Source: a virus. Taken from it: a stretch of DNA of 64,000 bases. Position numbers and translations under genes: made by a program. Under the pieces are notes generated by a model. It had not been told where the DNA came from. It did not search any database and was given only the letters and a program-made list of their open reading frames with translations. The stretch is from positions 4,052 to 68,051 of IMG/VR virus record IMGVR_UViG_3300030093_000028; one strand, written 5' to 3'. Below are positions 7,387 to 64,000 of the stretch, piece by piece. Every line of letters starts with the position of its first letter. Position 1 is the first letter of the stretch.

Positions 7387-7422
7387 TAAACATATAACCT
7401 TAATAGTATGTTATATGTTTAA
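7387..7422 (-). terminator. 13-bp-stem hairpin overlapping the stop codon of the 966-aa gene
   Basis: TTAAACATATAAC-N11-GTTATATGTTTAA, followed (minus sense) by TTTAAATTTACTGATTT. Confidence 0.45.
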
Positions 7423-28719: not shown

Positions 28720-30340
28720 ATATTTAGTCCGCTGATGCAATGCGGACTGCTACGAAAAAAGTTTTCAAAATTTTCTAAAAAGTTGTTGACATAGATATAG
28801 GCACCATGTAATATAGTTGATGTCAGAAAGAGACGCGGACAAATCGCAGATCAATCTGATGAGCACCTTGAGAAAAGAAGATGGAAAAAGTTCAAAAAAG
28901 TTCTTGCAACTGATAAAGTTAGATGCTATAATATCTGACACAGAGAAACGGAAGTTTCCAGTTGCACCTTGATATTTACATAGAGTATCAGCGTTGAGAA
29001 ATCAACGCGAAGGATTGTTTCAACCATGTGTATTCACGACTCCACGTGGTCATGGGCGTGTTCGAGGAGTCCCACTATGGAGGATACCCCATAGGTAGGC
29101 TTTGCCAGATGTAGGTAACTGGCTTCTGGTAGAAGAGGTGGAAAATCTCAACCGAGCAGACACGGCGCTGTGATGAAACGCAAGAAAATGGTATCGCTAA
29201 CTGGTTGCTATCGCAATAGATATGGAATATATTCCATTGAACCAAGTAGAGGGTAGTGTGGCAGCTATGCCAATCGCTTGGAGTGCCATAAGATAGTTGT
29301 CCAATTGATGCTGGTAATCAGCTATAAGACCAGACGCGAGTACGAGTAGCCCAAAGTTGGATTGTATTAGAAGATTAATATGCTGAATGGTGGGTGAAAG
29401 TTGTTGGTAGCCAATCCAGCCATAGATTGACGTAAAGTCGGGATGGAAAGATATGGGGTCGCTCCCTGTGTCTCAGCTCCATTTCCTATGTTACCGAATT
29501 ACCACTACGTTTTATGAAGGTAAGGCGAAGGCCTGAGACAATCTTTCGCGTTGGTTTGCTTGACCGACAAAGCGAGGTTCGATTCTGTGTTAGTCTTTTG
29601 GTTGATTTCACTAACGCAGATGGTACGGTACGATTCCGTAGACGGAAAATGTTTTGACTCCTTTCTGTTTTGGTTTAACGGTTGTTCCTTGCGTGTGAGT
29701 TATTTGACTTACGTTTTCATTTTCCGTCAACGCTCAGTCCCAAGGTTTACGATGGAGATAGCTACCTGACAAGTCTTGGGCGCATGGTAACGGCGTAATG
29801 TTACCCCTTGTCTTAACGGAGGAAGCGGACTGTTAAGCGTACACCGTTGCGTAAAATCGGTAGCGTTGGAAGGTCTGCCAGCGCGGACGGTATTTAAAAT
29901 AAGTGACCCCTCTGGTAGCTGGTGAGGACTTTAGTAAGCTACCACCGTCTATGGAGTATATATTATCATTGCGTGTTGTTGTATGGTATGAACAGATTTA
30001 TTTCCAGAATCTGTCATCGACAGAATGGGCAGGCCAGAGTCGAGTAGTCGTTCAATTTGCTCTTCTTTTGAGATGTCATCGTACTCGATAAGAGCATATA
30101 GACCATGCTTGAAAAGTATATATTCCATAGACGGTAATGTGACTTGGCGGTGTGGCGAAATCGGTATACGCTATGCTTTAATGGGCAAAACAGGTAGCTC
30201 CTGTATGCAAGTTCAAATCTTGCCACTGCCAATGGAACGTTACCGTCTATTATAATGGCTATGGGGGATTCGCACAACGGTTAGGGCAAGGGCCTTATAA
30301 GCTCTAGAAGAGTGTTCAACTCACTCATCCCCCACCATAA
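28720..30340 (+). ncRNA. ~1.6-kb ORF-free, GC-richer, densely self-complementary region: candidate large structured non-coding RNA adjacent to the tRNA array
   Basis: No ORF above 90 aa on either strand. Many long-range complementary pairs, for example GACGGAAAATG (29644) / CATTTTCCGTC (29720), GGTAGCT...AGCTACC (29913-29946) and CTGTCATCGACAG (30011-30023). Contains the tRNA-like element 30146-30231. Composition differs from the flanking coding DNA. Confidence 0.35.
30146..30231 (+). other. tRNA-like element with long variable arm but non-canonical anticodon arm (pseudo-tRNA or part of the large RNA)
   Basis: Acceptor GGCGGTG/CACTGCC pairs (with one G-U). T-arm GCAAG-TTCAAAT-CTTGC. Extra arm ACAGG-TAGCT-CCTGT. 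The 17-nt anticodon arm does not fold canonically. Confidence 0.3.
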
Positions 30341-30341
30341 T

Positions 30342-30414
30342 GGAGTCGTAGCTCAGTCGGAAGAGCAGGGGACTTTTAATCCCAAGGTCGTGGGTTCGAT
30401 TCTCACCGACTCCA
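30342..30414 (+). tRNA. tRNA-Lys (anticodon TTT), CCA encoded
   Basis: Acceptor GGAGTCG/CGACTCC. D-arm GCTCAGTCGGAAGAGC. Anticodon loop CTTTTAA. T-arm GGTCGTGGGTTCGATTCTCACCGAC. Confidence 0.8.
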
Positions 30415-30418
30415 CCAC

Positions 30419-30492
30419 GGACGCATGGCGCAGCTGGTTAGCGCAGATGCTTTACACGCATAAGGTCGTAGGTTCAAATCCTACTGTGTCCA
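30419..30492 (+). tRNA. tRNA-Val (anticodon TAC), CCA encoded
   Basis: Acceptor GGACGCA/TGTGTCC. D-arm GCGCAGCTGGTTAGCGC. Anticodon loop TTTACAC. T-arm GTAGGTTCAAATCCTAC. Confidence 0.75.
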
Positions 30493-30498
30493 CCAATT

Positions 30499-30580
30499 GC
30501 CGCAGTAATCCTTTAAAGACGAGGGTTGGACTGTAAATCCAATGTCTATGACTGGCTAGGAGCGTTACCTAGATGCGGCA
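30499..30580 (+). tRNA. putative type-II tRNA (anticodon GTA, Tyr-like) with atypical D- and T-arms
   Basis: Acceptor GCCGCAG/ATGCGGC (6/7 paired), disc A, then CCA. Anticodon arm TTGGA-CTGTAAA-TCCAA. Long variable region. The T-like hairpin CTAGG-AGCGTTA-CCTAG lacks the TTCRA motif. Confidence 0.4.
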
Positions 30581-30586
30581 CCAAAT

Positions 30587-30658
30587 GTCGGCTTCGTCTA
30601 ACGGTTAGGACATCACCCTTTCAAGGTGGAAACACGGGTTCGATTCCCGTAGCCGATA
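30587..30658 (+). tRNA. tRNA-Glu (anticodon TTC), CCA encoded
   Basis: Acceptor GTCGGCT/AGCCGAT. Anticodon arm TCACC-CTTTCAA-GGTGG. T-arm ACGGGTTCGATTCCCGT. Confidence 0.75.
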
Positions 30659-30667
30659 CCAAAACTC

Positions 30668-30749
30668 GGGGAAGTGATGGAATGGCAGACATCGGAGACT
30701 TAAAATCTCTTGCTCATAGAGCGTGAGGGTTCGAATCCCTTCTTCCCTA
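30668..30749 (+). tRNA. tRNA-Leu (anticodon TAA), long variable arm, CCA encoded
   Basis: Acceptor GGGGAAG/CTTCCCT. Anticodon arm GGAGA-CTTAAAA-TCTCT. Variable arm TGCTCATAGAGCG. T-arm GAGGGTTCGAATCCCTT. Confidence 0.75.
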
Positions 30750-30803
30750 CCAGATATATCAAGATATGGTATAATATCTTTTATATATAACAATTGATTG
30801 TGT

Positions 30804-30877
30804 GCGCCATTAACTCAGCTGGATAGAGTAACAGACTTCTAATCTGTAGGCCGTAGGTTCGAATCCTACATGGCGCA
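30804..30877 (+). tRNA. tRNA-Arg (anticodon TCT)
   Basis: Acceptor GCGCCAT/ATGGCGC. D-arm ACTCAGCTGGATAGAGT. Anticodon arm ACAGA-CTTCTAA-TCTGT. T-arm GTAGGTTCGAATCCTAC. Flanked by the 10-bp inverted repeat CAATTGATTG / CAATCAATTG. Confidence 0.75.
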
Positions 30878-30896
30878 CACAATCAATTGTACAATT

Positions 30897-30969
30897 GCCG
30901 ATGTGACTCAATTGGAAGAGTAACTGATTTGTAATCAGTCTGTTGCAGGTTCAAGTCCTGTCATCGGCT
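30897..30969 (+). tRNA. tRNA-Thr (anticodon TGT), CCA encoded
   Basis: Acceptor GCCGATG/CATCGGC. D-arm ACTCAATTGGAAGAGT. Anticodon arm ACTGA-TTTGTAA-TCAGT. T-arm GCAGGTTCAAGTCCTGT. Confidence 0.75.
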
Positions 30970-31015
30970 CCATGATTTTTTCTTGTCATAGTTGACATTA
31001 TATAACAATGGGGGC

Positions 31016-32513: not shown

Positions 32514-32719
32514 TGTACATGCCTTGGAAACTTTAGGGTTGACCATGAAAGACGGATAGTTTCGGCTATGTGAGAGTAAACGACATGTCGTTGAAATCTT
32601 AACGCGAAAGCAATTGTGTTTAATATATGTAGAGAGGGTGTGTCCTTTTGGATACACCCTCTTTTTTTATGTCGAGATGATATAATATATACGTAAAGCA
32701 AATGTATTGGAGAATATAT

Positions 32720-33094
32720 ATGCCTACGTTCATATGCACGGTATGTCAAAACAGAATTAAAGAACACGGAAGTTCTGTTCTTTGTGGCTATGATAACACG
32801 TCTCATGATATGATTGAGGACACAACTAAATTGTATGATAAGTCATTTCTTTGTCCAAACTTTATACATGTGCGCGGAAAGAATATCAACACCTGTAAAT
32901 CAAAGAAGGTATACTCGTGTAGATACGATGCTTTGTGTGCAGCAAGGAAGATATTTAATAGTTCTGGAAACATATTGATGCCATATAAGTGTAAGATATG
33001 TAAGCGATGGCATTTAACACACAATTATTCTGACGGATATAATCCGCAGGATGAATATGCAAAAGCAAGAAATGAACATAGGCTATATGATTAA
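32720..33094 (+). CDS. Cys-rich zinc-binding hypothetical protein (124 aa)
   Basis: CTVC...C...CKSKK...CKICKRWH. RBS GGAGAA. Confidence 0.45.
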   Translation: MPTFICTVCQNRIKEHGSSVLCGYDNTSHDMIEDTTKLYDKSFLCPNFIHVRGKNINTCKSKKVYSCRYDALCAARKIFNSSGNILMPYKCKICKRWHLTHNYSDGYNPQDEYAKARNEHRLYD

Positions 33095-33123: not shown

Positions 33124-33543
33124 ATGCGAATGTTCAATGAAGCGCATAAAGAAGCAATGAAAAGCACGTATAAAAGACGCTCGCAACATGTCGGTGCAGT
33201 CATAACATATAAGGGGCATATCATAGGTAGAGGATGTAACAGTAATAAAACCCATCCTTTGCAAAAGGAGTTCAACAGATATAGGGATTACAACAATGCA
33301 GATGTATATTCCCCAGATAAATTACACGCGGAGATTTCTGCAATATGTTCAATCTCGTATACTGTCGGAATAAATGTGAGATGGGATAAGGCTAGTATCT
33401 ATATCTATAGACCGATGAACGACACTAAAATGGCGTGTGCAAAGCCATGTCCTGCTTGTATGAACGCGATAAAAAGCCTTGGTATTAGGCATATATATTA
33501 TACTGATAGTAATGGTTATGCCTATCTCCAACTTGATGTGTAA
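33124..33543 (+). CDS. CDA-fold zinc deaminase (dCMP deaminase or tRNA-adenosine deaminase-like)
   Basis: HAEISAI (H-A-E) and PCPACMNAI (PCxxC) zinc-binding motifs. VGAVITYKGHIIGRGCN resembles TadA/ComEB. Confidence 0.65.
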   Translation: MRMFNEAHKEAMKSTYKRRSQHVGAVITYKGHIIGRGCNSNKTHPLQKEFNRYRDYNNADVYSPDKLHAEISAICSISYTVGINVRWDKASIYIYRPMNDTKMACAKPCPACMNAIKSLGIRHIYYTDSNGYAYLQLDV

Positions 33544-33669
33544 TTATTTTGTGAAGAGAGTTCCATTTGTGTTACTTTTCTGATATAATATCATAAGAAT
33601 AAAACAGAATTTTCTGATGGAAGATTCTTTGTGATGTAAATAGATTAAAAGAAAGTTGGAATATGATAT

Positions 33670-34044
33670 ATGGAAATGCCATTTAAGGAACAGACAGTAG
33701 AGAGCGATGATCGCTACTATGGTTTTTATGGTTGTCTTGATATTGAGATATCAGATGCGGATTATGAGTGCGATCATGTTGGTGATTGTTCGTTGGAAGA
33801 TTTCGATGACAATTTGCCAGACGCTTTAATTGATTATGATTTTGATGAACGAGTTCTCGGTAACATGATGGTGAGTAAGTTTGTCAGAAGTTTAAGCGAC
33901 AATGAAAAATATATCCTATCATGTCTATTAAATGGGATGACACATCAAGAGATTAGTGATACAATGGATTGTACAAGACAGAATGTCACTAGGACTGTGG
34001 AAAGACTCGGCACGAAAGCTATTGATTTTCTGTCTTATAATTAA
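33670..34044 (+). CDS. sigma-70 region-4-like HTH protein (small sigma/anti-sigma-type regulator)
   Basis: LSCLLNGMTHQEISDTMDCTRQNVTRTVERLGTKAIDFL resembles a sigma region 4.2 / LuxR-type HTH. Acidic N-terminus. Confidence 0.45.
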   Translation: MEMPFKEQTVESDDRYYGFYGCLDIEISDADYECDHVGDCSLEDFDDNLPDALIDYDFDERVLGNMMVSKFVRSLSDNEKYILSCLLNGMTHQEISDTMDCTRQNVTRTVERLGTKAIDFLSYN

Positions 34045-34074
34045 GGTTATATGCCAATAGAAAGGTGATTTATT

Positions 34075-34638
34075 ATGGCACGTACAAAGAATACTGTAAC
34101 TCAGGCCGTTGTAGATGAACTTATGGAGAGTTGTGATATCGCTGTCACTACCGCATTTGACAAGTGTACTATTGTAGCATGTAAGCTGCCCAATGGATTT
34201 GTAATTGTTGAGTCTTCTTCTTGTGTTGACCCTGCCAACTATGACGAGGATATGGGTGTCGATATTTGTATGAAGAATATCGAGAAGAAGCTTTGGGAGC
34301 TTGAGGGTTATCTGCTACAGAATAAGCTGTATCATGATGGTGTTTCATTTGATGATGATAAGGCTGATAACACAGATGACCTAGAGTGTGATGGCGATTG
34401 CGAGAATTGCGACCTGTTTGACGGCGATGATGATGACGCTGAGGAAGAGAAGGGCGATAAGCCAAAGCACACGGATAAGAAGTATGAGGATGACGAGTAT
34501 TGGGATAAGCTCATTCAGACTTACAATGATTATCTAGATTATATTGATGATTATCTCGATGACTTGGCACACTACAAGCGCCATCATCGTGGTCACAGCC
34601 CTTATCGCAATGACTATCTCAATAATGTTTGGTGCTAA
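34075..34638 (+). CDS. hypothetical protein with extremely acidic Cys/Asp-rich C-terminal half
   Basis: RBS GAAAGGTG. C-terminal ...DDDKADNTDDLECDGDCENCDLFDGDDDDAEEE... Possible DNA mimic or metal-binding. Confidence 0.5.
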   Translation: MARTKNTVTQAVVDELMESCDIAVTTAFDKCTIVACKLPNGFVIVESSSCVDPANYDEDMGVDICMKNIEKKLWELEGYLLQNKLYHDGVSFDDDKADNTDDLECDGDCENCDLFDGDDDDAEEEKGDKPKHTDKKYEDDEYWDKLIQTYNDYLDYIDDYLDDLAHYKRHHRGHSPYRNDYLNNVWC

Positions 34639-34740
34639 ACAATAGAATACATATAGATTATATGGAGAATGGCTTTGATAATATGTATTCTGATAGAATA
34701 CTAGTCGGAGCTATTCTCCATATTGCTAAGGAGTTAATGT

Positions 34741-35916
34741 ATGCAATTATATCTTGATTCAGCAGCAACAGCTAAGCCGAATAAGGAAGTTCTTGAAGCT
34801 GTCATGCCGTATTTAACTGACAACTTCTATAATCCGTCTTCAATCTATAGCAATGGCGTTAAAGTTAGACGTGCAATTGATAATGCTCGTGAGTCTATTG
34901 CTGGTTTTATCAACGCTGATACAGATGAAATCTTCTTTACATCAGGGTCAAGTGAATCAAATTGCTGGGCTATTCAGGGCTATTTGCTTGCTGGCGTTAT
35001 GGATATTTCTACTACTTCAATTGTCACGACCAAGATTGAACATAAGTCAATCATGGAATGTGTTGATGCTATGGAACGTTTTGGTAATGCAACTTATTAT
35101 TGTGACGTAACATATCTTGATGTTGACAAAGATGGCTTTGTTAATATGGAGCAGCTTGAGTCTGTATTTAAAGACCGCGAAGAGCCTGATTATTATGATA
35201 TCTTTGTGTCAATTCAGTTGGCAAATAATGAGGTTGGCACTATTCAAAACATTAAAGCTATCTCGGATGTTATCCATAAGTATGGTGGCGTGCTTCATGT
35301 GGATGCAACGCAAGCCTTTGGACAGATTCCCATTGATGTTAAGGCTATGGGAATTGATATGTTAAGTGCATCGGCGCATAAATTGGAAGGAGGGTTTAAA
35401 GGAGTTGGGTTATTATACAAGAAAAAAGACATTGAGATTCAGCCCATTATCTACGGTAGCCAGAACGCTGGATTACGCGGCGGCACTGAAAATGTTGCTG
35501 GTATTGTCGGCTTTGCGAAAGCCGTTGAACTCGCATCTGAGGAAATGGAAGACAAGCTGGCGTTATCTGTAAAGCGTGATTATTTTATTAACGAGCTTAC
35601 GAGAAATGGCTGCAAGCTAAATGGCGCTTCTGTTCATAGACTGCCAAATAACATTAATGTAATGTTGCCTGAAGGTATTGGCTCGGAAGAACTTCTATAT
35701 ATGCTTGACCTAGATGATATTCAGTGCAGTGCTGGTTCTGCCTGCAATAGTCATTCTAAGAAGCCATCATATGTACTCAAGGCTCTTGGATTGACGGATG
35801 AAGAAGCGGCAATGTCTGTTCGATTTACGATTTCTTCTGATATTACATATGAAGCCATTGATTATGTTGTTGAAAAAGTAGTAAAGATTATGAAGATTAT
35901 AAGGAATAGCAACTAA
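34741..35916 (+). CDS. IscS/NifS-like cysteine desulfurase (class V PLP aminotransferase fold)
   Basis: PLP-Lys motif SASAHKLEGGFKGVG. Active-site Cys loop CSAGSACNSHS (compare the IscS loop SSGSACTS). RGGTENVAGIVGFAKA. SD AAGGAG. Confidence 0.8.
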   Translation: MQLYLDSAATAKPNKEVLEAVMPYLTDNFYNPSSIYSNGVKVRRAIDNARESIAGFINADTDEIFFTSGSSESNCWAIQGYLLAGVMDISTTSIVTTKIEHKSIMECVDAMERFGNATYYCDVTYLDVDKDGFVNMEQLESVFKDREEPDYYDIFVSIQLANNEVGTIQNIKAISDVIHKYGGVLHVDATQAFGQIPIDVKAMGIDMLSASAHKLEGGFKGVGLLYKKKDIEIQPIIYGSQNAGLRGGTENVAGIVGFAKAVELASEEMEDKLALSVKRDYFINELTRNGCKLNGASVHRLPNNINVMLPEGIGSEELLYMLDLDDIQCSAGSACNSHSKKPSYVLKALGLTDEEAAMSVRFTISSDITYEAIDYVVEKVVKIMKIIRNSN

Positions 35917-35998
35917 ATCCGTTGCTTTGACGTGTTTGAAACTAAAACAGTTGCTATAATATAACGGTAACAGGTTGAGCATAGTAGAAAGGTTCGAT

Positions 35999-37183
35999 AT
36001 GCTAGACAAAAACGGCGAGCGTATGCTTGCATATACTGTAACAGTTGATAGTATCACGCCAATTGAAAAGGCTGATAACATTGAGCTTGCTCATGTTGGA
36101 GGTTGGAACGTAATTATTCGCAAGCATGAGTTTAATGCTGGCGACATGGCTGTCTTCTTTGAGATTGATTCTTTGCTACCAGAGACAGAGTGGTCTGAGT
36201 TTTTGCGCCCAAAGAAGTTTAAGGTAAAGACCTATAAGCTCGGAAAGTTTAATGTAGTTTCGCAGGGTTTGCTTCTTCCGATGAGCATTCTTCCAGATAA
36301 TAAGGAGTATGCTATCCACGAGGACGTGACAAATCTGCTTGGTATTAAGTATTATGTAGCCGAGGATAATGCTCGTAAGGCTAATTCTAATCCCAATGCC
36401 AAGTACAATAATATGTGCGCACGTAATACCAAGCTCGCAAAGAAGAAGTGGTGGAAGTGGCTGATGAAGCGTGCATGGGGTCGCAAGTTGCTGTTCGTTT
36501 TCTTTGGTCGCAAGAAGGATAATCCTAAGAACTGGCCTGTGTGGATTAAGAAGACGGATGAAGACCGCATTGAGAATGTCATGTTCATGCTTGAGGATAA
36601 GAATCCTTATGTCGTGACCGAGAAGATTGATGGCACTTCGACTACATTCTTCCTTGATTTGACTGGTCGTAAGCCTGATTTCGGTGTGTGTTCACGTAAT
36701 GTTCGCCAGATGGATGCAGATCAGAAGAACTTTGTTTCTGATATGTCTGGCATCGGAAACGTTTACTGGGAAATGGCATTCAAATACAATGTCGAGGATG
36801 CTCTTAAGGACATTGCAAAGAAGCGCAACCATAAGCATGTTGTACTACAGGGTGAGACGTATGGTGAGTCCGTACAGGGCAACAAGTACAAGCTTGATGA
36901 GCGCCGATTTGCCGCCTTCAATTTAATCTTTGACGGAGAGCGCCTTGGTTCTGTCGAAGCAAAGAAGATTCTAGCCGAGTACGATATTCCATTCGTGCCT
37001 ATTATTGATGATAACTATATCTTGCCCGATGCTGATGACTTTGAGGAGTTCAAGCAGTCTGCTGATGGCAAGAGTGTAATCAATAAGAAGTGTCTACGCG
37101 AGGGCTTTGTGTATCGTAGTCAGGATGGACAGCGCAGTTTCAAGAACGTTTCCCGCAAATTCTTGCTTAAAGCTGGTGAATAA
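35999..37183 (+). CDS. ATP-dependent RNA ligase (nucleotidyltransferase motif I KxDG) with N-terminal OB-like domain
   Basis: Motif I VTEKIDGTS. Motif IV-like EGFVYR. Motif V-like FKNVSRKFLLK. RBS GAAAGG then ATG 35999. Confidence 0.6.
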   Translation: MLDKNGERMLAYTVTVDSITPIEKADNIELAHVGGWNVIIRKHEFNAGDMAVFFEIDSLLPETEWSEFLRPKKFKVKTYKLGKFNVVSQGLLLPMSILPDNKEYAIHEDVTNLLGIKYYVAEDNARKANSNPNAKYNNMCARNTKLAKKKWWKWLMKRAWGRKLLFVFFGRKKDNPKNWPVWIKKTDEDRIENVMFMLEDKNPYVVTEKIDGTSTTFFLDLTGRKPDFGVCSRNVRQMDADQKNFVSDMSGIGNVYWEMAFKYNVEDALKDIAKKRNHKHVVLQGETYGESVQGNKYKLDERRFAAFNLIFDGERLGSVEAKKILAEYDIPFVPIIDDNYILPDADDFEEFKQSADGKSVINKKCLREGFVYRSQDGQRSFKNVSRKFLLKAGE

Positions 37184-38626
37184 ATGGACACTAGCACAAA
37201 GCCAGTGCTAGTGTGTATGGTGGGTTTACCCGCAAGTGGTAAATCCACCATTGCTTATAATCTAGCAATGGAAAATAATTATATTGTATTCAGCTCAGAT
37301 GCATTAAGAGAAGAACTTTATCTAGATATCAACGACCAAACTCATAACCATGAGCTGTTTGTGGAATTGCATAAGCGTATCAAGACGGCATTAAAAGAAG
37401 GTAATAATGTTATCTATGATGCTTGCAATTTAAGCTCTAAAAGGCGCGTTGCTTTCCTACAAGAGCTAAACCGCATCCCTTGTCGTAAAGAATGTATCAT
37501 TGCCGCTACTCCATATGAGCAATGTCTAAGGAATAATGCGAATAGAGACAGGTACGTACCAGATTATGTCATTGAGCGCATGTATAAACAATGGGAAACT
37601 CCTTATTGGTTTGAAGGTTGGGATGACATTGAGATTCATCACTGGAACGATAAAAGAAAAGATATTGACGAGTGGATTAATAGTTATATGGATTACGACC
37701 AAGATAATCCACATCATACATTAACTCTTGGTGAGCATTGTGTTTCTGTTGCTAACAAACTTAAAGATAACGATACCCTTTATTATGCTGGACTATTGCA
37801 CGATGTTGGAAAGCCATATACAAGGATGGAAAAAGACGTAGAGATTTATGTTCCAATACATGATTTTGAGGATTTATATGCTATATCAAATTATGGCAAT
37901 GTAAAAAATATTAAAACAAATAAGGTATTAAAGGGCAGAGATAATGGACATGGGTATCTAAGCGTTACATTGGGGAGCGAAACAAGAAAGAAGCGCTGTT
38001 ATATACACAGACTTGTAGCAGAACATTTTTTGGACATACCAGAGTGTTTAAAAAAATATAAGAAACTTGATGTTAATCATATTGATTCAAATAAATCAAA
38101 TAATTTTTATAAAAACTTAGAGTGGTGTACAAGAAGCCAAAATCAAAATCATGCATTTCAAACAAATCCAAATAGAAACGTTTCTGGTTTTGATAAATGG
38201 CAAAGTAAACTTTCATTTGGTGAAGTTGAGTCAATTAAATTTGTTAAAGAACATGCATGTTATACCAATAAAAAGATTGGAGATATGTTTGGTGTAGATG
38301 CGGCAACGGTATCAAGAATAATAAACAATAAGGCGTATATTACAGAGAATAAAGTTTTTAAGAAAAAAATATCGCCAATATTACCAATTGATCGTTGTAG
38401 ATATTATTCGCACGAACATGTTGGAGCGTATGACAGTTTATTCTTTGATTATCCTGTTGGTATTAACGCATTATTTGTTTCAGCCCTTATCTCAAATCAT
38501 ATGAAGCCATACGTATGGGAGAGAGACAACAACGAAAAAATGTATAATAAATATCTAAAATTGTGGGGCGATTATTTCATGCAATGTGTTATGATTCTAC
38601 ATGAAGCAGATAAGGCCGCACACTAA
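37184..38626 (+). CDS. P-loop polynucleotide-kinase-like domain plus HD phosphohydrolase, with an in-frame HNH (NUMOD4-HNH_3-NUMOD1) homing-endonuclease insertion splitting the HD domain
   Basis: Kinase P-loop GLPASGKST. HD motifs HHTL...LLHDVGK before, and HEHVG...ILHEADKAAH after, the insertion. The inserted ~aa 215-405 segment reads YAISNYGNVKNIK...VNHIDSNKSNN...NLEWCTRSQN. Its nt span (~37830-38400) is ~28 percent GC against ~40 percent in the flanks. The start codon overlaps the ligase stop (ATAAATG). Confidence 0.6.
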   Translation: MDTSTKPVLVCMVGLPASGKSTIAYNLAMENNYIVFSSDALREELYLDINDQTHNHELFVELHKRIKTALKEGNNVIYDACNLSSKRRVAFLQELNRIPCRKECIIAATPYEQCLRNNANRDRYVPDYVIERMYKQWETPYWFEGWDDIEIHHWNDKRKDIDEWINSYMDYDQDNPHHTLTLGEHCVSVANKLKDNDTLYYAGLLHDVGKPYTRMEKDVEIYVPIHDFEDLYAISNYGNVKNIKTNKVLKGRDNGHGYLSVTLGSETRKKRCYIHRLVAEHFLDIPECLKKYKKLDVNHIDSNKSNNFYKNLEWCTRSQNQNHAFQTNPNRNVSGFDKWQSKLSFGEVESIKFVKEHACYTNKKIGDMFGVDAATVSRIINNKAYITENKVFKKKISPILPIDRCRYYSHEHVGAYDSLFFDYPVGINALFVSALISNHMKPYVWERDNNEKMYNKYLKLWGDYFMQCVMILHEADKAAH

Positions 38627-38638
38627 AGGAGTTTTTAT

Positions 38639-39055
38639 ATGTCATATAGGGTTTTCGATCTAAAAAATCGTGAATGGGCAGATCCCGATAAAATTCTAAT
38701 TTCATGCGGAGAAAACAAGCTTCTGACCTGCGGAAACGCTGTGTTCGGATGGCAAAAATTGAAGGAATTGCCTGAAGATAGGTACTTATTCCACAAAAGC
38801 CTAGGAATTGTGGATAAACATGGTGTCGAGCTATATGAAGGCGATATCTGTACAGTTGACATGGAAGAAGGACATGAGGATGGCAATACGATTACTGTCG
38901 AAATTGCATATGTCGAAGAGCGTGCTTCTTATTTCATGTTTGACTGGGAGCATTCTAAGTATTATAGCTTTGGCGAAGACATTAATCTAATCATTGAGGT
39001 CATTGGCAATGTATTTGATGATTTTGATTGGAAAAATGAGGTGGGTGCAGCATGA
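38639..39055 (+). CDS. YopX-family protein
   Basis: 138 aa with ...DKHGVELYEGDICTVD...ITVEIAYVEE..., typical of the YopX domain. SD AAGGAG. Confidence 0.55.
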   Translation: MSYRVFDLKNREWADPDKILISCGENKLLTCGNAVFGWQKLKELPEDRYLFHKSLGIVDKHGVELYEGDICTVDMEEGHEDGNTITVEIAYVEERASYFMFDWEHSKYYSFGEDINLIIEVIGNVFDDFDWKNEVGAA

Positions 39056-39185
39056 TAGTAATTGCAATCGTTATGGTGGCGGTAATTGTGGTATCATATA
39101 CGTGCTGTAAGATTTCCCACAAGGAAGATGAACTTCGTAGGTATGGGAATGAAGACTATGGTATTTGGGATGAGTGGTGATTGAT

Positions 39186-39755
39186 ATGATTCAGATTCGC
39201 AATGGAGTATTTGAGACTAATAGCTCAAGTACGCACAGCATTTGTATCTCCAAGAAACCTGTTGATGCAGATGGTTGCCATGTTGACTTTCATTTTGGAG
39301 AGTTTGGCTGGGAGAATGGAGATGCCGATGTAGCGGATTATCTATACACGGCAATCTATGAGCTTGACCGTAGTGGCAAAGACGGGCTTCTCGATAAGCT
39401 AAAGGATATTCTCGATGCTCATGGTATCACCTATACGTTTGAAAAGCCCAAGACAGTTCACTATGATTATGGTGATGGAAATGAATGGGACGAGCTTGAT
39501 GTTGGCTATATCGACCACGGATATGATACATATGAGTTCGTACATGCAGTGCTTGACAATGACGATATGCTGATTCGCTATCTCTTTAGCGATAGTCATG
39601 TGTATACTGGCAATGACAATGACGAGGGTGGCATGATGTGCAATGCCGCAGAGCCTACTATCTGGAAGTGGGATTCTGATTGGCACAATAGCTGGGAAGA
39701 GCCAAACCCAAATCACGATGAAGAGAAGTACGAATACTTCTATAAGGGAAACTAG
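39186..39755 (+). CDS. hypothetical acidic protein, paralog A (shares N-terminal MIQIRxGVFETNSSSTHSxCI motif)
   Basis: The ATG at 39186 is preferred over GTG 39174 by analogy with paralog B. The first 21 aa are nearly identical to 39766-40236. Confidence 0.5.
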   Translation: MIQIRNGVFETNSSSTHSICISKKPVDADGCHVDFHFGEFGWENGDADVADYLYTAIYELDRSGKDGLLDKLKDILDAHGITYTFEKPKTVHYDYGDGNEWDELDVGYIDHGYDTYEFVHAVLDNDDMLIRYLFSDSHVYTGNDNDEGGMMCNAAEPTIWKWDSDWHNSWEEPNPNHDEEKYEYFYKGN

Positions 39756-39765
39756 GTGCTGTACA

Positions 39766-40236
39766 ATGATTCAGATTCGTGCTGGTGTGTTCGAAACTAA
39801 TTCAAGCTCAACACATTCGCTATGTATTATGACACAAGACGATTTTAATAAATGGGTTTCTAGTCATAATGGCGAATATTATTTTGTTGATGGTGATGGA
39901 TATGGCTATTCTTTCAATCATTGTTTTGCTGATGGTGTTGGAAGCGGAATCTATGATAAAGAAACAGTAAAGCAGGCTATCGAAAAGTACGCACAGGAGT
40001 ATGAAGAGAAATACAAAGATGAGCAGTGGTATACTCCTGTTGATGTTGATATGCTAGAGCATAGCGATGATGACGAGGTTGAGTCTAGGCGCGAAGATTC
40101 AAGACTGTGGGACTTGGGTATCTATACATATGATGATTGGTGTAGATATAATGATGAACTAGAGCAGTATGAGACACCATTTACAACTCCGTCTGGTGAT
40201 GATATGATTGTATTCGGAGCATATGGCTATCGCTAG
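39766..40236 (+). CDS. hypothetical acidic protein, paralog B (MIQIRAGVFETNSSSTHSLCI...)
   Basis: The ORF-track version 39643-40236 is an out-of-context 5' extension overlapping paralog A. Confidence 0.5.
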   Translation: MIQIRAGVFETNSSSTHSLCIMTQDDFNKWVSSHNGEYYFVDGDGYGYSFNHCFADGVGSGIYDKETVKQAIEKYAQEYEEKYKDEQWYTPVDVDMLEHSDDDEVESRREDSRLWDLGIYTYDDWCRYNDELEQYETPFTTPSGDDMIVFGAYGYR

Positions 40237-40244
40237 GAGAAGTA

Positions 40245-41150
40245 ATGAAGATTCTTGGCAGTTATAAGAACAATGATTATACCTGTACTATGTTCTCAGA
40301 CGGAACTAAAATAAGGTGGAATGACAAGGACTCATTTAACCCAATCAAGCCTGAGTCAATCGACCTTAAGATTACTAACATGTGCAATATGGAATGTGGT
40401 ATGTGCCACGAGAATTCAACGCCTGATGGGAAGCATGGCGACATTCTCAACCTTCCGTTTATCGAAACCATGTTTCCATATAGTGAAATTGCAATCGGTG
40501 GCGGCAATCCTCTGACACACCCAGACTTGATTGAGTTCCTTGAGGGTCTTAAAGAGCGCAAGATTATCGCAAGCATGACTGTAAATCAAGTACACTTTAT
40601 GCATAATATCGACCTACTGAAAGAGCTTACGGACAAGAAGCTAATCTATGGTCTTGGTATTTCATATATCGGTGGTCGCCATAAGAATTGCATTGACGCA
40701 ATCAAGCAGTTCCCCAATGCCGTTGTCCATGTTATCAATGGCATCGTACATATGGACAGTCTAGAAGCGCTTGCCCATAACGATTTGAAGATTCTCGTCC
40801 TTGGATACAAGGAGTTTAGACGTGGCAAGGCTCTGTATGATGAGTGCGGTAGAGAAATTGATTCTCTAAAATACCAGTTCTATGATATGCTACCCAAGAT
40901 TGTGAACGATGGTTGGTTCAAGTGCATTAGCTTTGACAACCTTGCAATTAAGCAGCTTGAGCCTAAGCGTCTTATGAGCGAGAAAGACTACGCCAGTTTT
41001 TATATGGGAGACGATGGGTCATTTACTATGTATGTAGATGCAGTCAATCGACAGTTTGCCAAGAGTTCTGTTTCTACCGAGCGCTATGATTTGATGAATG
41101 ATATCGCCGATATGTTTAAGGTTATTAAGGATGGTGTCAATGGAAAGTAA
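40245..41150 (+). CDS. radical SAM enzyme (function unknown)
   Basis: Canonical CxxxCxxC cluster CNMECGMC at aa 47-54. Gly-rich GGGNP SAM-binding-like motif. 301 aa. Confidence 0.65.
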   Translation: MKILGSYKNNDYTCTMFSDGTKIRWNDKDSFNPIKPESIDLKITNMCNMECGMCHENSTPDGKHGDILNLPFIETMFPYSEIAIGGGNPLTHPDLIEFLEGLKERKIIASMTVNQVHFMHNIDLLKELTDKKLIYGLGISYIGGRHKNCIDAIKQFPNAVVHVINGIVHMDSLEALAHNDLKILVLGYKEFRRGKALYDECGREIDSLKYQFYDMLPKIVNDGWFKCISFDNLAIKQLEPKRLMSEKDYASFYMGDDGSFTMYVDAVNRQFAKSSVSTERYDLMNDIADMFKVIKDGVNGK

Positions 41151-41577
41151 GTTGCTTTATCTTGCAGGTGGCATAAGTAATTTAAGCCGCGATGAGCAGT
41201 GGCAGTGGCGCAAGGATGTGCGCAATAAGATTCTTGAGAGCATTAATTTTTATGGGTATGATTATATGCCTATGTTCTTCAATCCACTGATGCACTACAC
41301 TGTAGATGATGAAATTCATAAGAGTGAGCGCGAGGTATTTGAGCTTGAGACTTATAATGTTCGCAAGTCTGACTTGGTTATTGTGAACTTTAACGCGCCT
41401 GAGTCAATCGGCACAGCTATGGAACTCGCTATCGCCAAGGAGAATCGTATTCCCGTTGCTGGATTGAACGAGGATAACGTTGAGTTGCATCCTTGGCTGG
41501 TTGAATGTACAACGCGCATGTGCGATACATTTGACGAGCTTATCGATTATGTTGCATGTCAGCATTTGATGGCGTAA
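41140..41577 (+). CDS. nucleoside 2-deoxyribosyltransferase / Rcl(DNPH1)-like protein
   Basis: LYLAGG (compare the YLAGP motif). ESIGTAMELAIAKENRIPV (compare DSGTAFELGYA). The start overlaps the rSAM stop. Confidence 0.55.
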   Translation: MESKLLYLAGGISNLSRDEQWQWRKDVRNKILESINFYGYDYMPMFFNPLMHYTVDDEIHKSEREVFELETYNVRKSDLVIVNFNAPESIGTAMELAIAKENRIPVAGLNEDNVELHPWLVECTTRMCDTFDELIDYVACQHLMA

Positions 41578-44355: not shown

Positions 44356-44784
44356 ATGTCTTCTGATTTTAAGCAAGAGTTCCTGAAAAACAAGTATGAG
44401 TATATTTCAGATGATGCTGCCAATGAGCCGCTAAAGAAAACGAAGAAGCAGAAGCCTAAGAAGTCTAATCATAAACATGAATATAAGAATATAATTATTC
44501 AGTCTTATGATAAGGTGGCTGGCAAATGGCGTGATACTTATGTAAGTTATTGTCCTATTTGTGGCAAGCTGAGCAGCTTTCAGGAAACTGATGAGATTGC
44601 AAAGATTTTCCCAAATATTCGAGTTGGTACATTTGGGTTTTGTATTGGCCTAACTTATAATGAGAGCAACAAAGAGTGGCAGAGCTTTGCAAACTGGTCT
44701 GGCGAAAATATTCCGCATGTAAAGTGGAAAGACTTTGTTTATTGGAAAGACAAGTATATCGACTTGAGTTTGCTAGATAATTAA
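44356..44784 (+). CDS. hypothetical zinc-ribbon protein (142 aa)
   Basis: SD AAAGGAG. CPICGK motif. Followed by terminator CTGCCCATGAC-N8-GTCGTGGGCAG-TTTTGT (44797-44834). Confidence 0.5.
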   Translation: MSSDFKQEFLKNKYEYISDDAANEPLKKTKKQKPKKSNHKHEYKNIIIQSYDKVAGKWRDTYVSYCPICGKLSSFQETDEIAKIFPNIRVGTFGFCIGLTYNESNKEWQSFANWSGENIPHVKWKDFVYWKDKYIDLSLLDN

Positions 44785-44848
44785 TTGACTTGAATGTTCT
44801 GCCCATGACATAACAGTCGTGGGCAGTTTTGTATAAGGAGGTTCCGCC

Positions 44849-46829: not shown

Positions 46830-47633
46830 ATGGGAATAAAAAGCGTTCAAAATGTAAATTTACATGACGATAGAATTGGAGAAGAACGTTGTAATAAAAG
46901 TGGTTGTCTTATGAAGATAATTGAGTATAACGGTAATAATGATTTGATTGTAGAATTTCAGGATGAATATCATTATTTAGTACATACTGATTATAAAAGT
47001 TTTAAAAATGGCAGCGTTAGAAATCCATATCATCCAAAAATCTATGGCGTTGCGGCAACTGGAAGTAAATACAAAACAAGGTACGGCAATGAAACAACGA
47101 AAGAATATTTAGCATGGTATGACATGCTAAGAAGATGTTTTGACAAAAAATACAAAAAAATTTTTTCAACATATAAGGATGTTACGTGTTGTAAAGAGTG
47201 GTTGTTGTTTGAAAATTTCTATGAGTGGTTACATGAACAAGATAATTTTGATAAATGGTTGAATAATAAAAAATGGTGCTTAGATAAAGACATACTTAAA
47301 AAAGGTAATAAAATATATAGTCCATACACATGTTGTCTTGTCCCTATGCATGTAAATAATTTATTTATTAAAAACAACAAGTCTAGAAATGGACTACCAA
47401 TAGGAGTTAGTAAAACCAATAAAAATAAATATGTTGTAAATTATAGAAATGGTCATGAAGATATTAGTAGACCTAGTGGTTATTTCAGTACTATAAATGA
47501 AGCATTTGAAGCATATAAAGAGTATAAAGAAAACGTCATCAAACAAGTTGCTCAAAAAGAATTTGATGATGGTAATATCACTAGTGGATGTTATGAAGCA
47601 ATGATGAAATATAATGTAGAAACTACTGATTAG
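46830..47633 (+). CDS. free-standing HNH homing endonuclease (HNH_3 with AP2/NUMOD-like DNA-binding tail)
   Basis: Very AT-rich (~28 percent GC) ORF inserted between the helicase and primase genes. C-terminal GYFSTINEAFEAYKEYKE is AP2/IENR-like. HNH_3-like central region. Confidence 0.5.
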   Translation: MGIKSVQNVNLHDDRIGEERCNKSGCLMKIIEYNGNNDLIVEFQDEYHYLVHTDYKSFKNGSVRNPYHPKIYGVAATGSKYKTRYGNETTKEYLAWYDMLRRCFDKKYKKIFSTYKDVTCCKEWLLFENFYEWLHEQDNFDKWLNNKKWCLDKDILKKGNKIYSPYTCCLVPMHVNNLFIKNNKSRNGLPIGVSKTNKNKYVVNYRNGHEDISRPSGYFSTINEAFEAYKEYKENVIKQVAQKEFDDGNITSGCYEAMMKYNVETTD

Positions 47634-50972: not shown

Positions 50973-51194
50973 ATGGAACTAGATACATTTTATGTCGTGA
51001 CGATTCCAGAACATACAAAGAAAGAGATTTCTTTTAGTACAAAAAAGTATGGCATGTGCTTAGGCATTGAGCCAAAAGAAACACAAGCCTATGTTCCAGA
51101 AAAGAAATATTATTTCAACAAACGTAAACAGGCTAAGAAGTTTTGCCTAGAGAATAATTATCCGTTTGAATACATCACAAAGGAGTTGTATTAA
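50973..51194 (+). CDS. hypothetical protein (73 aa)
   Basis: SD AGGGAGA. Confidence 0.4.
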   Translation: MELDTFYVVTIPEHTKKEISFSTKKYGMCLGIEPKETQAYVPEKKYYFNKRKQAKKFCLENNYPFEYITKELY

Positions 51195-52399
51195 TGGCAC
51201 GCTTATCAAAAGAAGAACTTGATAAAATCAAAAAGAAGTACGGCGTATCACGTATCTTTTCATGGAGTCGTGTAAATACTTTTATGACTTCACATTATGA
51301 GTATTACCTTAAGTATGTTAAGCATGTAAAAGAGGACAGAACAGACTGTGGTTATACTTCCCTTGGCTCCATCGCTCACGACACTCTAGACGCATTCTAT
51401 GAGGGGCAGATTTCATATGAAGATATGATTAATCAGTTCGAGGACGGTTGGCTTACTGCTATTGATATTGCAGACCTTAAGCTTGACCGTAATGATGAAG
51501 AGCATGATGCCAGTATCAAGGCTAAGTATAAGGAAGACCTGCAAATCTTCTTTAAAAACCATATTAAGTATGAGCATAAACTGCTTATCGAGAAGCCTGT
51601 AATTGCACAGGTTGGCGATAATGTATTTGTCGGCTATATCGATGCATTGTTCAAGGACGATGATGGTTGTTATAACATTATAGACTTTAAGACCAGTTCT
51701 ATGTACAAGGGTAAGACGCTTGAAGAGCATTCAGGGCAGCTAACCATATACGGATTGGGTTTAGTGCAAGCTGGTATTCCACTTGATAAGGTAAAGATTT
51801 GCTTTAACTTCTTGAAGTATTGTAACGTACAGTATCATCAGAAGAACGGCGCAGTAAAAGAGCGACAGGTTGAGCGCTATAAGCTTGGCGATAGTCTCAA
51901 GACAAATGTTAAGATGTGGCTTAAAGCTGACGGGTATTCAGATGATGAGATTGAAGATTATCTGAAGCTCCTCATTGATACCAATAGTCTTGACGTGTTA
52001 CCAGATGATGTACGCAATAAGTATGTGATTACAGATTGCCATGTATTCATTCCGTTTACACAGGAGCTAATTGATAAGTGGACTGATACGATTGTATCTA
52101 CCATTCAAGATATCAATATGCGTGAGAAGGACTACGAAGAGACTAAGAGCGATGCCGCGTTTTGGGATTCTGAGGAAGATGTTAAAGCGCAGTCGTATTA
52201 CTTCTCGACATTAATGGGATACTCTGCAAACCTACATAAGCCATACAAGGAATACCTAGATAAGCTAGAAGCACAGAAGAATGGCGCAGATATGTTCGGC
52301 GGTCTTCTCGGGGATTCTAAAAATGATGTTGTAACTAGTCAGGATATATGCAATAATAATACTGATGAAGTAGATTTGTCTTGGCTAGATAATATCTAA
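51194..52399 (+). CDS. PD-(D/E)xK nuclease (RecB/Cas4-like exonuclease), C-terminus DLSWLDNI
   Basis: GYIDALFKDDDGCYNIIDFKTS carries the D...D/E-x-K (IDFKT) signature. Start overlaps the previous stop (TTAATGG). Confidence 0.6.
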   Translation: MARLSKEELDKIKKKYGVSRIFSWSRVNTFMTSHYEYYLKYVKHVKEDRTDCGYTSLGSIAHDTLDAFYEGQISYEDMINQFEDGWLTAIDIADLKLDRNDEEHDASIKAKYKEDLQIFFKNHIKYEHKLLIEKPVIAQVGDNVFVGYIDALFKDDDGCYNIIDFKTSSMYKGKTLEEHSGQLTIYGLGLVQAGIPLDKVKICFNFLKYCNVQYHQKNGAVKERQVERYKLGDSLKTNVKMWLKADGYSDDEIEDYLKLLIDTNSLDVLPDDVRNKYVITDCHVFIPFTQELIDKWTDTIVSTIQDINMREKDYEETKSDAAFWDSEEDVKAQSYYFSTLMGYSANLHKPYKEYLDKLEAQKNGADMFGGLLGDSKNDVVTSQDICNNNTDEVDLSWLDNI

Positions 52400-63553: not shown

Positions 63554-63645
63554 TTTATATTCTTATGTATATTAGTGGTTAAATGCTGTATAATATTTAA
63601 TTGTATCAAATAAAGTTATATGCTTTAATTAGGAGGTAATGCGTA

Positions 63646-64000
63646 TGATGTTTGTTATTAAGCGAAATAGACGAGAAGACGCTTTTGACAAGAACAAGAT
63701 TTCAAACGCTATTAAGAAAGCATTTATTGAAGTCGATGGCGATGTTACCGAAGACGCAAATAAGATTGCAAGTAAGATTTCAAATGAAATCGCAAATATC
63801 AAGAAAGAGAAAATGTCCGTTGAGGATATTCAAGACATGGTTGTGAATAAGCTTATGGCAACCTCTCGCAAGGATGTGGCTTCTCACTACGTTGAGTACC
63901 GTTATAAGCGCAAGATTATTCGTGAGGTCAATACAACAGATGAAACAATTATGGAGCTGCTAAGTGGAGAAAGCGACTATTGGAATAACGAGAATTCAAA
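63646..64000 (+). CDS. nrdD: anaerobic ribonucleoside-triphosphate reductase, N-terminal ATP-cone (3' partial, runs off window end)
   Basis: SD AGGAGG then ATG 63646. Translated by hand as MRMMFVIKRNRREDAFDKNKISNAIKKAF..., which matches the ATP-cone consensus VIKRDG..E.FD..KI..AI.KA. No stop before the window end. The ORF-track 63652-63846 entry is another frame. Confidence 0.6.

Follow-up and report, generated by a model that had tools for sequence, protein, structure and literature searches.

The window analysed here is a 64,000-nucleotide stretch of the IMG/VR virus record IMGVR_UViG_3300030093_000028 (positions 4,052 to 68,051 of that record), representing 64 kb of a roughly 130-kb phage genome, and coordinates given without a locus number refer to it. 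The genes between 33.1 and 41.6 kb all lie on the + strand and were identified with Pfam, PHROGs and NCBIfam, the family scans of the window covering open reading frames (ORFs) of at least 110 amino acids. A preliminary description of positions 33124-41577 had read them as a possible gene set for one nucleotide or DNA hypermodification pathway. The region is a mosaic of separate functions rather than a single pathway, and its five items would be a dCMP deaminase, a cysteine desulfurase, an RNA end-healing and sealing cassette, two proteins (here called A and B) encoded together with a radical S-adenosylmethionine (SAM) enzyme, and a nucleoside 2-deoxyribosyltransferase (NDT)/Rcl-like protein. 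Across distant phages the group of A, B and the radical SAM enzyme is the sole item of the mosaic that behaves as one unit. The 8.5 kb would form the promoter-proximal part of a long early or middle operon in a large SPbeta-like phage of gut Clostridia.

Protein A (39186..39755, + strand; 189 amino acids) starts with the tag MIQIRNGVFETNSSSTHS and carries the domain motifs GEFGW, YIDHG and TGNDN. Protein B (39766..40236, + strand; 156 amino acids) has the same N-terminal tag, with homology to A limited to residues 1-25, and both proteins open MIQIRxGVFETNSSSTHS. Alignment of B with A by hhalign returned 25 columns covering residues 1-25 only (99.1% probability, E = 4e-19, 76% identity), and the C-terminal parts are unrelated, with no hhalign alignment past residue 25. 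The two had been described as tandem paralogs, of which the shared start stands and homology beyond the 25 aligned columns does not. Because the homology of A and B is confined to these residues, the tag can be considered a portable 25-residue module carried on unrelated bodies. Within 169 copies of the tag, R5, E10, N12, S13-S15 and H17 were invariant and F9 was phenylalanine in 168, and among the best 150 family representatives nearly every one had its tag starting at residue 1-3. It was encoded by 349 different DNA versions, with all six serine codons occurring at each serine position, which indicates selection on the peptide and not on a DNA or RNA element. The shared tag motif is far beyond chance.

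A many-locus alignment displayed a common B-type architecture consisting of the tag, a short EE[FY]xxWxxGE segment, a length-variable acidic stretch and a conserved TTPSGDxxVAFGxYGY end, the conserved C-terminal motif of the window's protein B being TTPSGDxxVxFGxYGY. B-type orthologues were found in Lak-B6 and at loci L003 and L128. At L128, within the unit of a distant phage, a gene for a 111-amino-acid GNAT acetyltransferase (L128 7066-7401) lies between the A-type and B-type genes, an arrangement seen at this one locus only. As had been suspected, the two proteins stand outside known families; Pfam, NCBIfam and PADLOC gave no family name for A or B, and PHROGs returned only phrog_28997, annotated 'unknown function'. 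The AlphaFold2 model of A was confident (predicted local distance difference test (pLDDT) 88.9; predicted template modelling score (pTM) 0.85), with residues 1-12 below 50, yet the modelled domain had no known fold or structural relative.

The radical SAM enzyme (40245..41150, + strand; 301 amino acids) contains the motifs CNMECGMC and GGGNP and matches PF04055 with 30.6 bits (cut-off 29.5). Its CxxxCxxC motif falls inside this above-cut-off match, its partial TIM-barrel core resembles solved radical SAM enzymes, and C47-N-M-E-C51-G-M-C54 is invariant among its homologues. Structurally the core is near the peptide and protein maturases SuiB, SkfB and anSME and also near the nucleotide-acting viperin, BlsE and MoaA; on these model-based comparisons the enzyme appears to sit in the SPASM/twitch neighbourhood, which holds mostly peptide and protein maturases plus nucleotide- and sugar-acting enzymes. 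In both the stand-alone and the fused family (see below) the CxxxCxxC triad supplies the only conserved cysteines, unlike the cysteine-rich SPASM/twitch pattern, and an auxiliary cluster is therefore unlikely. An RRE/PqqD-like domain was not detected for the enzyme. Naming it from sequence was attempted and abandoned, as only generic core matches were obtained (MoaA, HxsC, viperin, GDGT synthase), all far below their cut-offs. The homologue search listed 6348 proteins, and the partner domain formed 2486 clusters at 50% identity; matches of about 24% identity in Klebsiella, Enterobacter and Cronobacter phages probably belong to other radical SAM families. Two radical SAM enzymes had been counted between 33124 and 41577, where we found a single ORF with CxxxCxxC. 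The second enzyme lies at 52416-53504 (CSFGCKYC), directly after a PD-(D/E)XK exonuclease gene (51194-52399), and resembles PA0069, Rv2578c and 'rSAM mobile pair B', with scores well under each cut-off and no Pfam match.

Linkage of the tag proteins to the radical SAM enzyme was assessed in 84 loci, 80 collected from IMG/VR by homology to the enzyme and four found before these. A member of the A/B family lay beside the enzyme in 80 of the 84 loci, amounting to 182 copies with 1-6 per locus, and most of 49 loci from genomes and metagenome-assembled genomes (MAGs), Lachnospiraceae isolates included, repeated the pattern. For the reverse test, IMG/VR was scanned for DNA encoding VFETNSSSTH with the radical SAM enzyme disregarded. 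This gave 119 loci, 83 of which had the enzyme within the stored chunk; among the 16 flanked by at least 3.5 kb on each side, 15 had it. Searches seeded with A and with the enzyme reached the same phages, with matches 1-2 kb apart. Lak-B6 carries the radical SAM gene followed by four tandem genes that all open MK[IV]Q[IV]RxxVFETNSSSTH[ST], and Microcystis phage Ma-LMM01 encodes the tag protein as gp130 and the radical SAM enzyme as gp128. No third universally conserved partner was found; in jumbo phages and Methylobacterium the genes around the fused form encode mostly hypothetical proteins. The radical SAM enzyme and the ETNSSSTHS proteins are thus a real, conserved functional unit that was previously undescribed; literature searches covering phage desulfurase with radical SAM, Ma-LMM01, Arash, anti-defence and the motif strings found nothing on a unit of a radical SAM enzyme and a TNSSS tag. 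The enzyme family ranges from half-megabase Lak phages to cultivable Salmonella and Microcystis phages, with Thermus phages suggestive. To our knowledge few phage-encoded radical SAM enzymes have a known function (for example QueE, NrdG and the enzyme of thymidine hypermodification).

In Ma-LMM01, the product of the gene that separates gp130 from gp128, gp129 (L001 5631-5969), has a match to PF24203, the 'Phage ProQ C-terminal-like domain'. The adjacent gp131, annotated as a histidyl-tRNA synthetase, had no Pfam match. YS40_162 of Thermus phage phiYS40 was considered as a family member and retained only as a suggestive case, the match spanning 13 residues of the motif with an hhalign probability of 1%.

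Protein A and the radical SAM enzyme also occur naturally as one polypeptide. Salmonella phage Arash gp146c (476 amino acids) starts MYLTQIRYGFATNSSSSHS, continues with FGW, YIDH and GGNDN motifs and ends in a radical SAM domain of this family. A search with gp146c found 726 proteins, of which the best 120 were all full-length (435-570 amino acids); their sources were contigs of jumbo-phage size, Methylobacterium ajmalii, a Thermoanaerobaculia MAG and a Promethearchaeota MAG. Profile-profile alignment by hhalign showed homology between stand-alone A and the N-terminal domain of the fusions (98.4%, E = 7e-15, 114 columns). The tag of the fused family reads R-x-G-F-A-T-N-S-S-S-S-H-S, and the residue after the phenylalanine is alanine in 80 of 80 aligned fused copies and glutamate in 169 of 169 stand-alone copies, a switch that would fit a role in contact between A and the radical SAM enzyme. 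The AlphaFold2 model of the fused protein P0241 (pLDDT 87.6; pTM 0.72) left the NSSSSH loop, residues 13-18, below 50. At L136 (6095-9326; a Methylobacterium ajmalii contig with a ParA-like gene) the fused gene lies directly after a gene for a 604-amino-acid AAA+ ATPase, and this bacterial replicon is possibly a plasmid or phage-plasmid.

One portable N-terminal peptide, predicted to be flexible and placed on unrelated C-terminal domains, could also act as a targeting signal unrelated to the radical SAM enzyme, for instance for packaging into the capsid like the targeting sequence of T4 internal proteins, with the adjacency of the genes being inherited synteny. This is very improbable, because linkage to the enzyme persists across unrelated phage groups and altered gene orders, the tag domain is fused to the enzyme itself in hundreds of proteins, and the unit belongs to the genome's replication/nucleotide region, not to its structural one.

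We tentatively favour, at somewhat less than an even chance, a reading in which the radical SAM enzyme is a maturase that docks on the N-terminal tag and modifies a residue of the TNSSS loop; that the tag is the substrate, and what the chemistry would be, we infer. A SPASM/twitch-like core without an auxiliary cluster would bind the 25-residue tag module of otherwise unrelated partners, the bound module being a beta-strand, the R-x-x-V-F-E-T-N-S-S-S-x-H-S loop and a further beta-strand. The 5'-deoxyadenosyl radical would then alter a residue of the TNSSS loop. Such a maturase would explain the loop as both a recognition element and functionally indispensable. The reading is consistent with one enzyme having one to six clients, with unrelated bodies sharing the tag alone, with the maturase-like structural neighbours, with the Glu/Ala switch between unfused and fused forms and with the flexibility of the tag, which is the low-confidence part of two otherwise confident AlphaFold2 models.

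Several points weigh against maturation of the tag. No modification has been observed, and the chemistry is putative throughout. Enzyme-substrate fusions are unusual, and a partner-domain reading suits the fused form no less well. The polar motifs FGW, [YV]DH and GNDN are kept both in stand-alone A and in the A domain of the fusions, which look like a ligand-binding or catalytic site of A's own, and the conservation of at least 10 invariant residues across Lak, cyanophage and enterobacterial phages exceeds that usual for leader peptides. Within the fusion model the tag loop still has a pLDDT below 50, leaving docking unsupported there. Two phages, represented by loci L031/L221 and L056/L167 (pairs from the same IMG/VR contigs), carry the radical SAM enzyme without a tag protein within 2.5 kb, the Thermus case is a 13-residue match only, most of the distant unit-bearing lineages lack the desulfurase, and the structural neighbours of the enzyme include small-molecule enzymes.

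In its widest form the maturase reading would describe a new radical SAM protein maturation system common to many phages (Lak megaphages, cyanophage Ma-LMM01, Salmonella phage Arash, jumbo phages and phages of gut Clostridia), in which an enzyme free of auxiliary clusters would install a new residue or cofactor in the invariant serine-rich loop of proteins of novel structure, using sulfur from the desulfurase in some lineages; we consider this wide form rather doubtful. The combination of an invariant serine-rich loop, linkage to a radical SAM enzyme and recurrent fusion could reveal new radical chemistry or a protein-derived cofactor, and there is a substantial chance that the unit represents new maturation chemistry.

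Between the desulfurase and the unit lies an RNA-repair cassette. Its first gene (35975..37183, + strand) encodes an ATP-dependent RNA ligase of the DraRnl/PHA02142 type, with an N-terminal OB domain and a nucleotidyltransferase domain with KIDG, matching PF21189 (76 bits), PF09414 (71.3 bits) and phrog_968 (219 bits) and reaching 112 bits against TIGR02306 (cut-off 151). The second (37184..38626, + strand) begins one base past the ligase stop and encodes a P-loop kinase similar to polynucleotide kinase (PNK) joined to an HD phosphohydrolase with a NUMOD4-HNH insertion (PNK-HD; matches to AAA_33, KTI12, HD, NUMOD4 and HNH_3). It scored 76.8 bits for AAA_33 and 32.4 bits for HD, contains GLPASGKS and HDVGKP and has weak matches to bacterial Pnkp and PNK-3'Pase. 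With a kinase-like domain, a phosphoesterase domain and a KxDG ligase encoded together, the two genes look like a predicted end-healing and sealing cassette. A homing-endonuclease module of about 185 amino acids (NUMOD4-HNH-helix-turn-helix) is inserted in frame after HDVGKP, at about residues 218-406 (about nt 37835-38400), where the alignment shows that it replaces a loop of about 20 amino acids present in the uninterrupted 313-amino-acid orthologues of L004 and L005. The insertion showed no intein blocks. In L004, a close relative, the RNA ligase orthologue (5427-7706; 759 amino acids) itself contains an intein with a LAGLIDADG endonuclease (Pfam Intein_splicing, LAGLIDADG_2). Different mobile elements have thus struck the RNA-repair genes of sister phages, HNH in the window's PNK-HD and an intein in the ligase of L004. 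Many of the 84 loci have a PNK-like gene 2-4.5 kb upstream of the unit; it falls in a blast cluster of 44 loci that also merges an unrelated YorH ORF.

This neighbourhood bears on the main rival of tag maturation, a two-component enzyme acting on RNA, likeliest tRNA, in which A and B would act as subunits for substrate binding or specificity, the TNSSS loop would belong to a binding or catalytic site, and the radical SAM enzyme would modify an RNA nucleotide. The unit would possibly work alongside the RNA ligase and PNK-HD, and on phage tRNAs with uridine at position 34 (U34), with the desulfurase giving sulfur. RNA-related neighbours recur in four lineages. Besides the upstream PNK-like gene, an RNA ligase occurs in the lineage of the window and near the tag protein of L225, the ProQ-C-like protein of Ma-LMM01 lies between A and the radical SAM enzyme, and an Arash gene annotated 'RNA ligase', with two H-x-[TS]-x motifs, follows about 400 bp downstream of the fused gene. 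All seven typed tRNAs of the window (30263-30972) have U34, including tRNA-Lys(UUU) and tRNA-Glu(UUC), the polar motifs common to A and the fused A domain are enzyme-like, and the GNAT gene inside the L128 unit loosely recalls Elp3. Against this, neither A nor B showed a detectable RNA-binding domain, and B, which consists of the tag and an acidic variable stretch, is a poor candidate for binding RNA. The 64-kb window contains no PP-loop thiolase, and large phages group their nucleic-acid genes anyway, which makes neighbourhood weak evidence. An RNA-acting enzyme is on balance unlikely. If the target were RNA or DNA after all, the unit would be a new phage nucleic-acid modification, with a bearing on evasion of host defence.

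The cysteine desulfurase (34741..35916, + strand) is a bona fide group-I enzyme of the IscS/NifS type, as the preliminary description had stated. It has the class-V aminotransferase fold (PF00266, 198 bits), the pyridoxal 5'-phosphate (PLP) lysine in SASAHK, corresponding to SxHK, and the catalytic cysteine loop CSAGSAC, and it matches IscS/NifS chains of the PDB over its full length (E = 3e-74 to 1e-59). Scores remained below the NCBIfam equivalog cut-offs for NifS (366 against 530 bits, the best), IscS (286 against 643) and DndA (281 against 480), and the PADLOC models for SspA and DndA matched over the full length with 383 and 379 bits. Gene order relative to the unit varied among relatives: desulfurase-A-rSAM at L059 (rSAM denoting the radical SAM gene), A..B-rSAM-desulfurase at L128 with the desulfurase abutting the radical SAM gene, A-B-rSAM-x-desulfurase at L227, A directly adjacent to the desulfurase at L156 and desulfurase-x-deaminase-A-B-rSAM at L166. 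This shuffled but linked pattern argues for a functional tie to the unit. The contigs of L031/L221 and L056/L167 carry an A-type tag protein elsewhere, about 1-2 kb from a cysteine desulfurase. No desulfurase matches were present in the GenBank records of Lak, Ma-LMM01, Thermus phages or Arash, and none was seen in the jumbo-phage loci with the fused form; four gut-phage loci had a desulfurase without the unit. The desulfurase is therefore a recurrent yet optional companion of the unit. Most desulfurase matches among GenBank phages are host-like fragments mislabelled as phage, many of them short, unannotated records named Listeria, Staphylococcus or Enterococcus 'phage', so that co-occurrence counts from that collection are unreliable.

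A motif search of the 64-kb window found no PP-loop (SGGxDS), no credible CPxP carrier of the TusA type and no small ORF with a GG tail, and no DndC/D/E or SspB/C/D partners were present among the scanned ORFs of the window, which covers 64 of about 130 kb. The lack of a PP-loop enzyme, a sulfur carrier and a Dnd/Ssp partner favours Fe-S or sulfur supply for phage Fe-S enzymes. We infer that phages with a desulfurase most likely use it as a sulfur source for this radical SAM enzyme, for the second one (at 52.4 kb in the window) and for the anaerobic ribonucleotide reductase system. An ORF at 63633-64000, cut off by the window's end and opening with the ATP-cone-like sequence KRNRREDAFDKNKISNAIKKAF, presumably encodes NrdD, the anaerobic ribonucleotide reductase.

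The desulfurase could instead be independent of the unit and serve tRNA thiolation via host MnmA or ThiI, as do YrvO and NifZ of Bacillus, or DNA phosphorothioation in the manner of DndA/SspA. The phage has tRNA-Lys(UUU) and tRNA-Glu(UUC), tRNAs in which U34 is normally 2-thiolated, and group-I desulfurases of Firmicutes are dedicated to single thio-cofactor routes. The full-length PADLOC matches to SspA and DndA and the four gut-phage loci that lack the unit point the same way. This independence is nonetheless quite unlikely: the window holds no PP-loop protein of the MnmA/ThiI/TtcA type and no TusA- or ThiS-like carrier motif, no Dnd/Ssp partner was among its scanned ORFs, the SspA and DndA models are generically IscS-like, with NCBIfam ranking NifS and IscS above DndA, and the gene directly abuts the radical SAM enzyme or A at L128, L059 and L156. 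Host thiolation enzymes could still serve the phage desulfurase.

The deaminase gene (33103 with a GTG start or 33124 with an ATG start to 33543, + strand) encodes a zinc-binding dCMP/cytidine deaminase of the CDA fold (PF00383, 54.7 bits against a cut-off of 25; phrog_174). The HAE and PCxxC motifs ascribed to it earlier are present, the latter as PCPAC, as expected of a cytidine/dCMP deaminase. Related phages place it differently with respect to the unit, and it is an ordinary nucleotide-pool enzyme outside the conserved unit, feeding the dUMP/dTMP pool.

The NDT/Rcl-like protein (41140..41577, + strand; 145 amino acids) contains the LYLAGG and SIGTAMELA motifs reported for it, while its Pfam assignment falls under both cut-offs (PF05014, 27.3 against 28.8 bits; PF15891, 25.1 against 30 bits). 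With E-values of 4e-6 and 2e-5, these matches are nevertheless suggestive of the fold. Y7 (in LYLAGG), D78 and E95 (in SIGTAMELA) are kept in six homologues. The best PDB match of its profile was the NDT 7m5h, a weak one (E = 0.36), in which SDLVIV and GTAMELA align with NDT segments and E95 aligns with GVASEIGVA; NDT and Rcl enzymes have a catalytic glutamate in an S/D-x-G-x-x-x-E motif and an N-terminal Y-x-A-G segment. Translational coupling to the radical SAM gene, as proposed before, is borne out by an ATG that overlaps the radical SAM stop by 11 nt and by AAGGATGG, resembling a ribosome-binding site, just upstream. The gene follows the radical SAM enzyme in 18 loci only, all with an enzyme at least 64% identical to that of the window, and is an add-on restricted to close relatives.

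Ahead of the deaminase lies a promoter-like site (33014..33043, + strand; TTAACA-18-TATAAT, 11/12), identified by consensus match alone, which is a possible start of a transcription unit of about 12 kb. Strong terminator-like hairpins on the + strand occur nearby only at 32631-32664 and at 44799-44826, the latter (11 pairs and a T run) being the likely end of the transcription unit. From this arrangement, the genes from the deaminase through a 142-amino-acid gene at 44356-44784 plausibly form one transcript. Co-transcription in an early or middle phage operon is not proof of a common function.

Probable co-transcription from 33014, with no strong terminator before 44799, is one argument for the proposal that the deaminase, desulfurase, radical SAM enzyme, NDT-like protein and tag proteins form a single nucleotide or DNA hypermodification pathway, either akin to thymidine hypermodification or acting via sulfur insertion. 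The 11-nt overlap of the radical SAM and NDT-like genes, the presence of viperin, BlsE and MoaA among the structural neighbours of the enzyme, the deaminase directly before A at L166 and the recurrently nearby desulfurase also favour it. The partners that such a pathway calls for are absent from the scanned ORFs of the 64-kb window: Pfam and PHROG scans revealed no dUMP/dCMP hydroxymethylase and no 5-hydroxymethyldeoxyuridine (5-hmdU) kinase, the pair required for thymidine hypermodification, and the family scans no glycosyl- or aminotransferase and no DpdA/QueC-type gene. The PLP enzyme is a canonical cysteine desulfurase and not an aminotransferase or decarboxylase. Linkage in relatives, on which the proposal also turned, holds for the radical SAM enzyme with the tag proteins and in part for the recurrent desulfurase; the deaminase, desulfurase and NDT-like gene were not found beside the unit in the Lak, Ma-LMM01, Thermus, Arash and jumbo-phage loci, and the NDT-like gene is confined to close relatives. 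Unrelated genes for a helix-turn-helix (HTH) protein, a gp49 protein, the RNA ligase, PNK-HD and a YopX protein separate the proposed members. A single hypermodification pathway is accordingly improbable, to about the same degree as an independent desulfurase.

The HTH, gp49/66, RNA ligase, PNK-HD and YopX genes were not mentioned in the preliminary description, and the picture of the locus changes with them to a mosaic that contains an RNA-repair cassette instead of a single modification pathway. The small HTH protein (33670..34044, + strand) resembles LuxR and sigma-70 region 4 (PF00196 GerE, 25.6 bits; phage sigma-factor PHROGs). The gp49/gp66-family phage protein (34075..34638, + strand; PF13876, 80.5 bits) has an acidic tail, and the YopX-family protein is encoded at 38639..39055 (+ strand; PF09643, 43.9 bits).

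Elsewhere the window encodes a portal, a terminase, an integrase-like protein, a replicative helicase, a primase and a DNA polymerase, and no near-identical DNA was found among GenBank phages. A 966-amino-acid protein at 7419-10319 (- strand) matches PF05183, the eukaryotic-type RNA-dependent RNA polymerase family, like the single-subunit RNA polymerase YonO of SPbeta; this YonO-like polymerase and YorF- and YorH-like neighbours in relatives indicate that the phage is SPbeta-like. The best homologues of the radical SAM enzyme (more than 91% identical) are encoded by metagenomic contigs that reach about 135 kb, whereas Lachnospiraceae and other Clostridia account for the more distant relatives, which are prophage-like regions or binned contigs. 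Eight tRNA genes are clustered at 30145-30972. The first (30145-30232; 88 nt) was assigned no amino acid by ARAGORN, and the seven typed ones (30263-30972), all with U34, are Ile-UAU, Lys-UUU, Val-UAC, Glu-UUC, Leu-UAA, Arg-UCU and Thr-UGU. The genes for the replicative helicase and the primase are separated by a free-standing HNH endonuclease gene (46830-47633).

Clusters for thymidine hypermodification in phages combine a PLP-fold enzyme, a radical SAM enzyme and a nucleotide-scaffold-like protein in one operon, as the window does; the window differs in that no 5-hmdU-forming enzyme or kinase was found among its scanned ORFs, in having a desulfurase as its PLP enzyme and in a partnership that is not conserved beyond close relatives. 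T4 Pnkp with Rnl, and bacterial HD-Pnk with RNA ligase, share with 35975-38626 a PNK-like enzyme, a phosphoesterase and an RNA ligase encoded back to back, whereas the phosphoesterase of the window is of HD type and interrupted by HNH, and its ligase is of the DraRnl/PHA02142 type. IscS/NifS, DndA/SspA and YrvO/NifZ have the same full-length group-I fold, PLP lysine and catalytic cysteine loop as the phage desulfurase, which unlike them scores below every NCBIfam equivalog cut-off and has no scaffold, carrier or acceptor enzyme nearby, the radical SAM enzyme and tag proteins being its recurrent neighbours.

For the unit itself, the SPASM/twitch maturases SuiB, SkfB, CteB, PqqE and EpeE are alike in having an enzyme gene beside one to several partners with a common conserved peptide. 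The phage enzyme differs in lacking conserved auxiliary-cluster cysteines and a detected RRE/PqqD-like domain, its partners are folded proteins of about 100-280 amino acids and not short peptides, and the phage peptide, placed at the very N terminus, hardly varies between phage groups. The activases PFL-AE and NrdG are likewise small radical SAM enzymes without auxiliary clusters that act on a flexible loop of a partner, an action that would be shared by the phage enzyme, whereas no position of the phage tag holds a conserved glycine and the partners are not glycyl-radical enzymes. anSME acts on a Ser/Cys-x-Pro-x-Arg motif of many sulfatases. Together with AtsB it resembles the proposed phage system in that one radical SAM enzyme serves many clients through a short invariant serine-containing motif, which is both the recognition site and the site of the future active-site residue; it differs in requiring two auxiliary clusters, lacking in the phage enzyme, whose motif is TNSSSxHS. 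The individual enzymes of the locus are of known kinds, and the unit is a radical SAM enzyme with dedicated protein partners.

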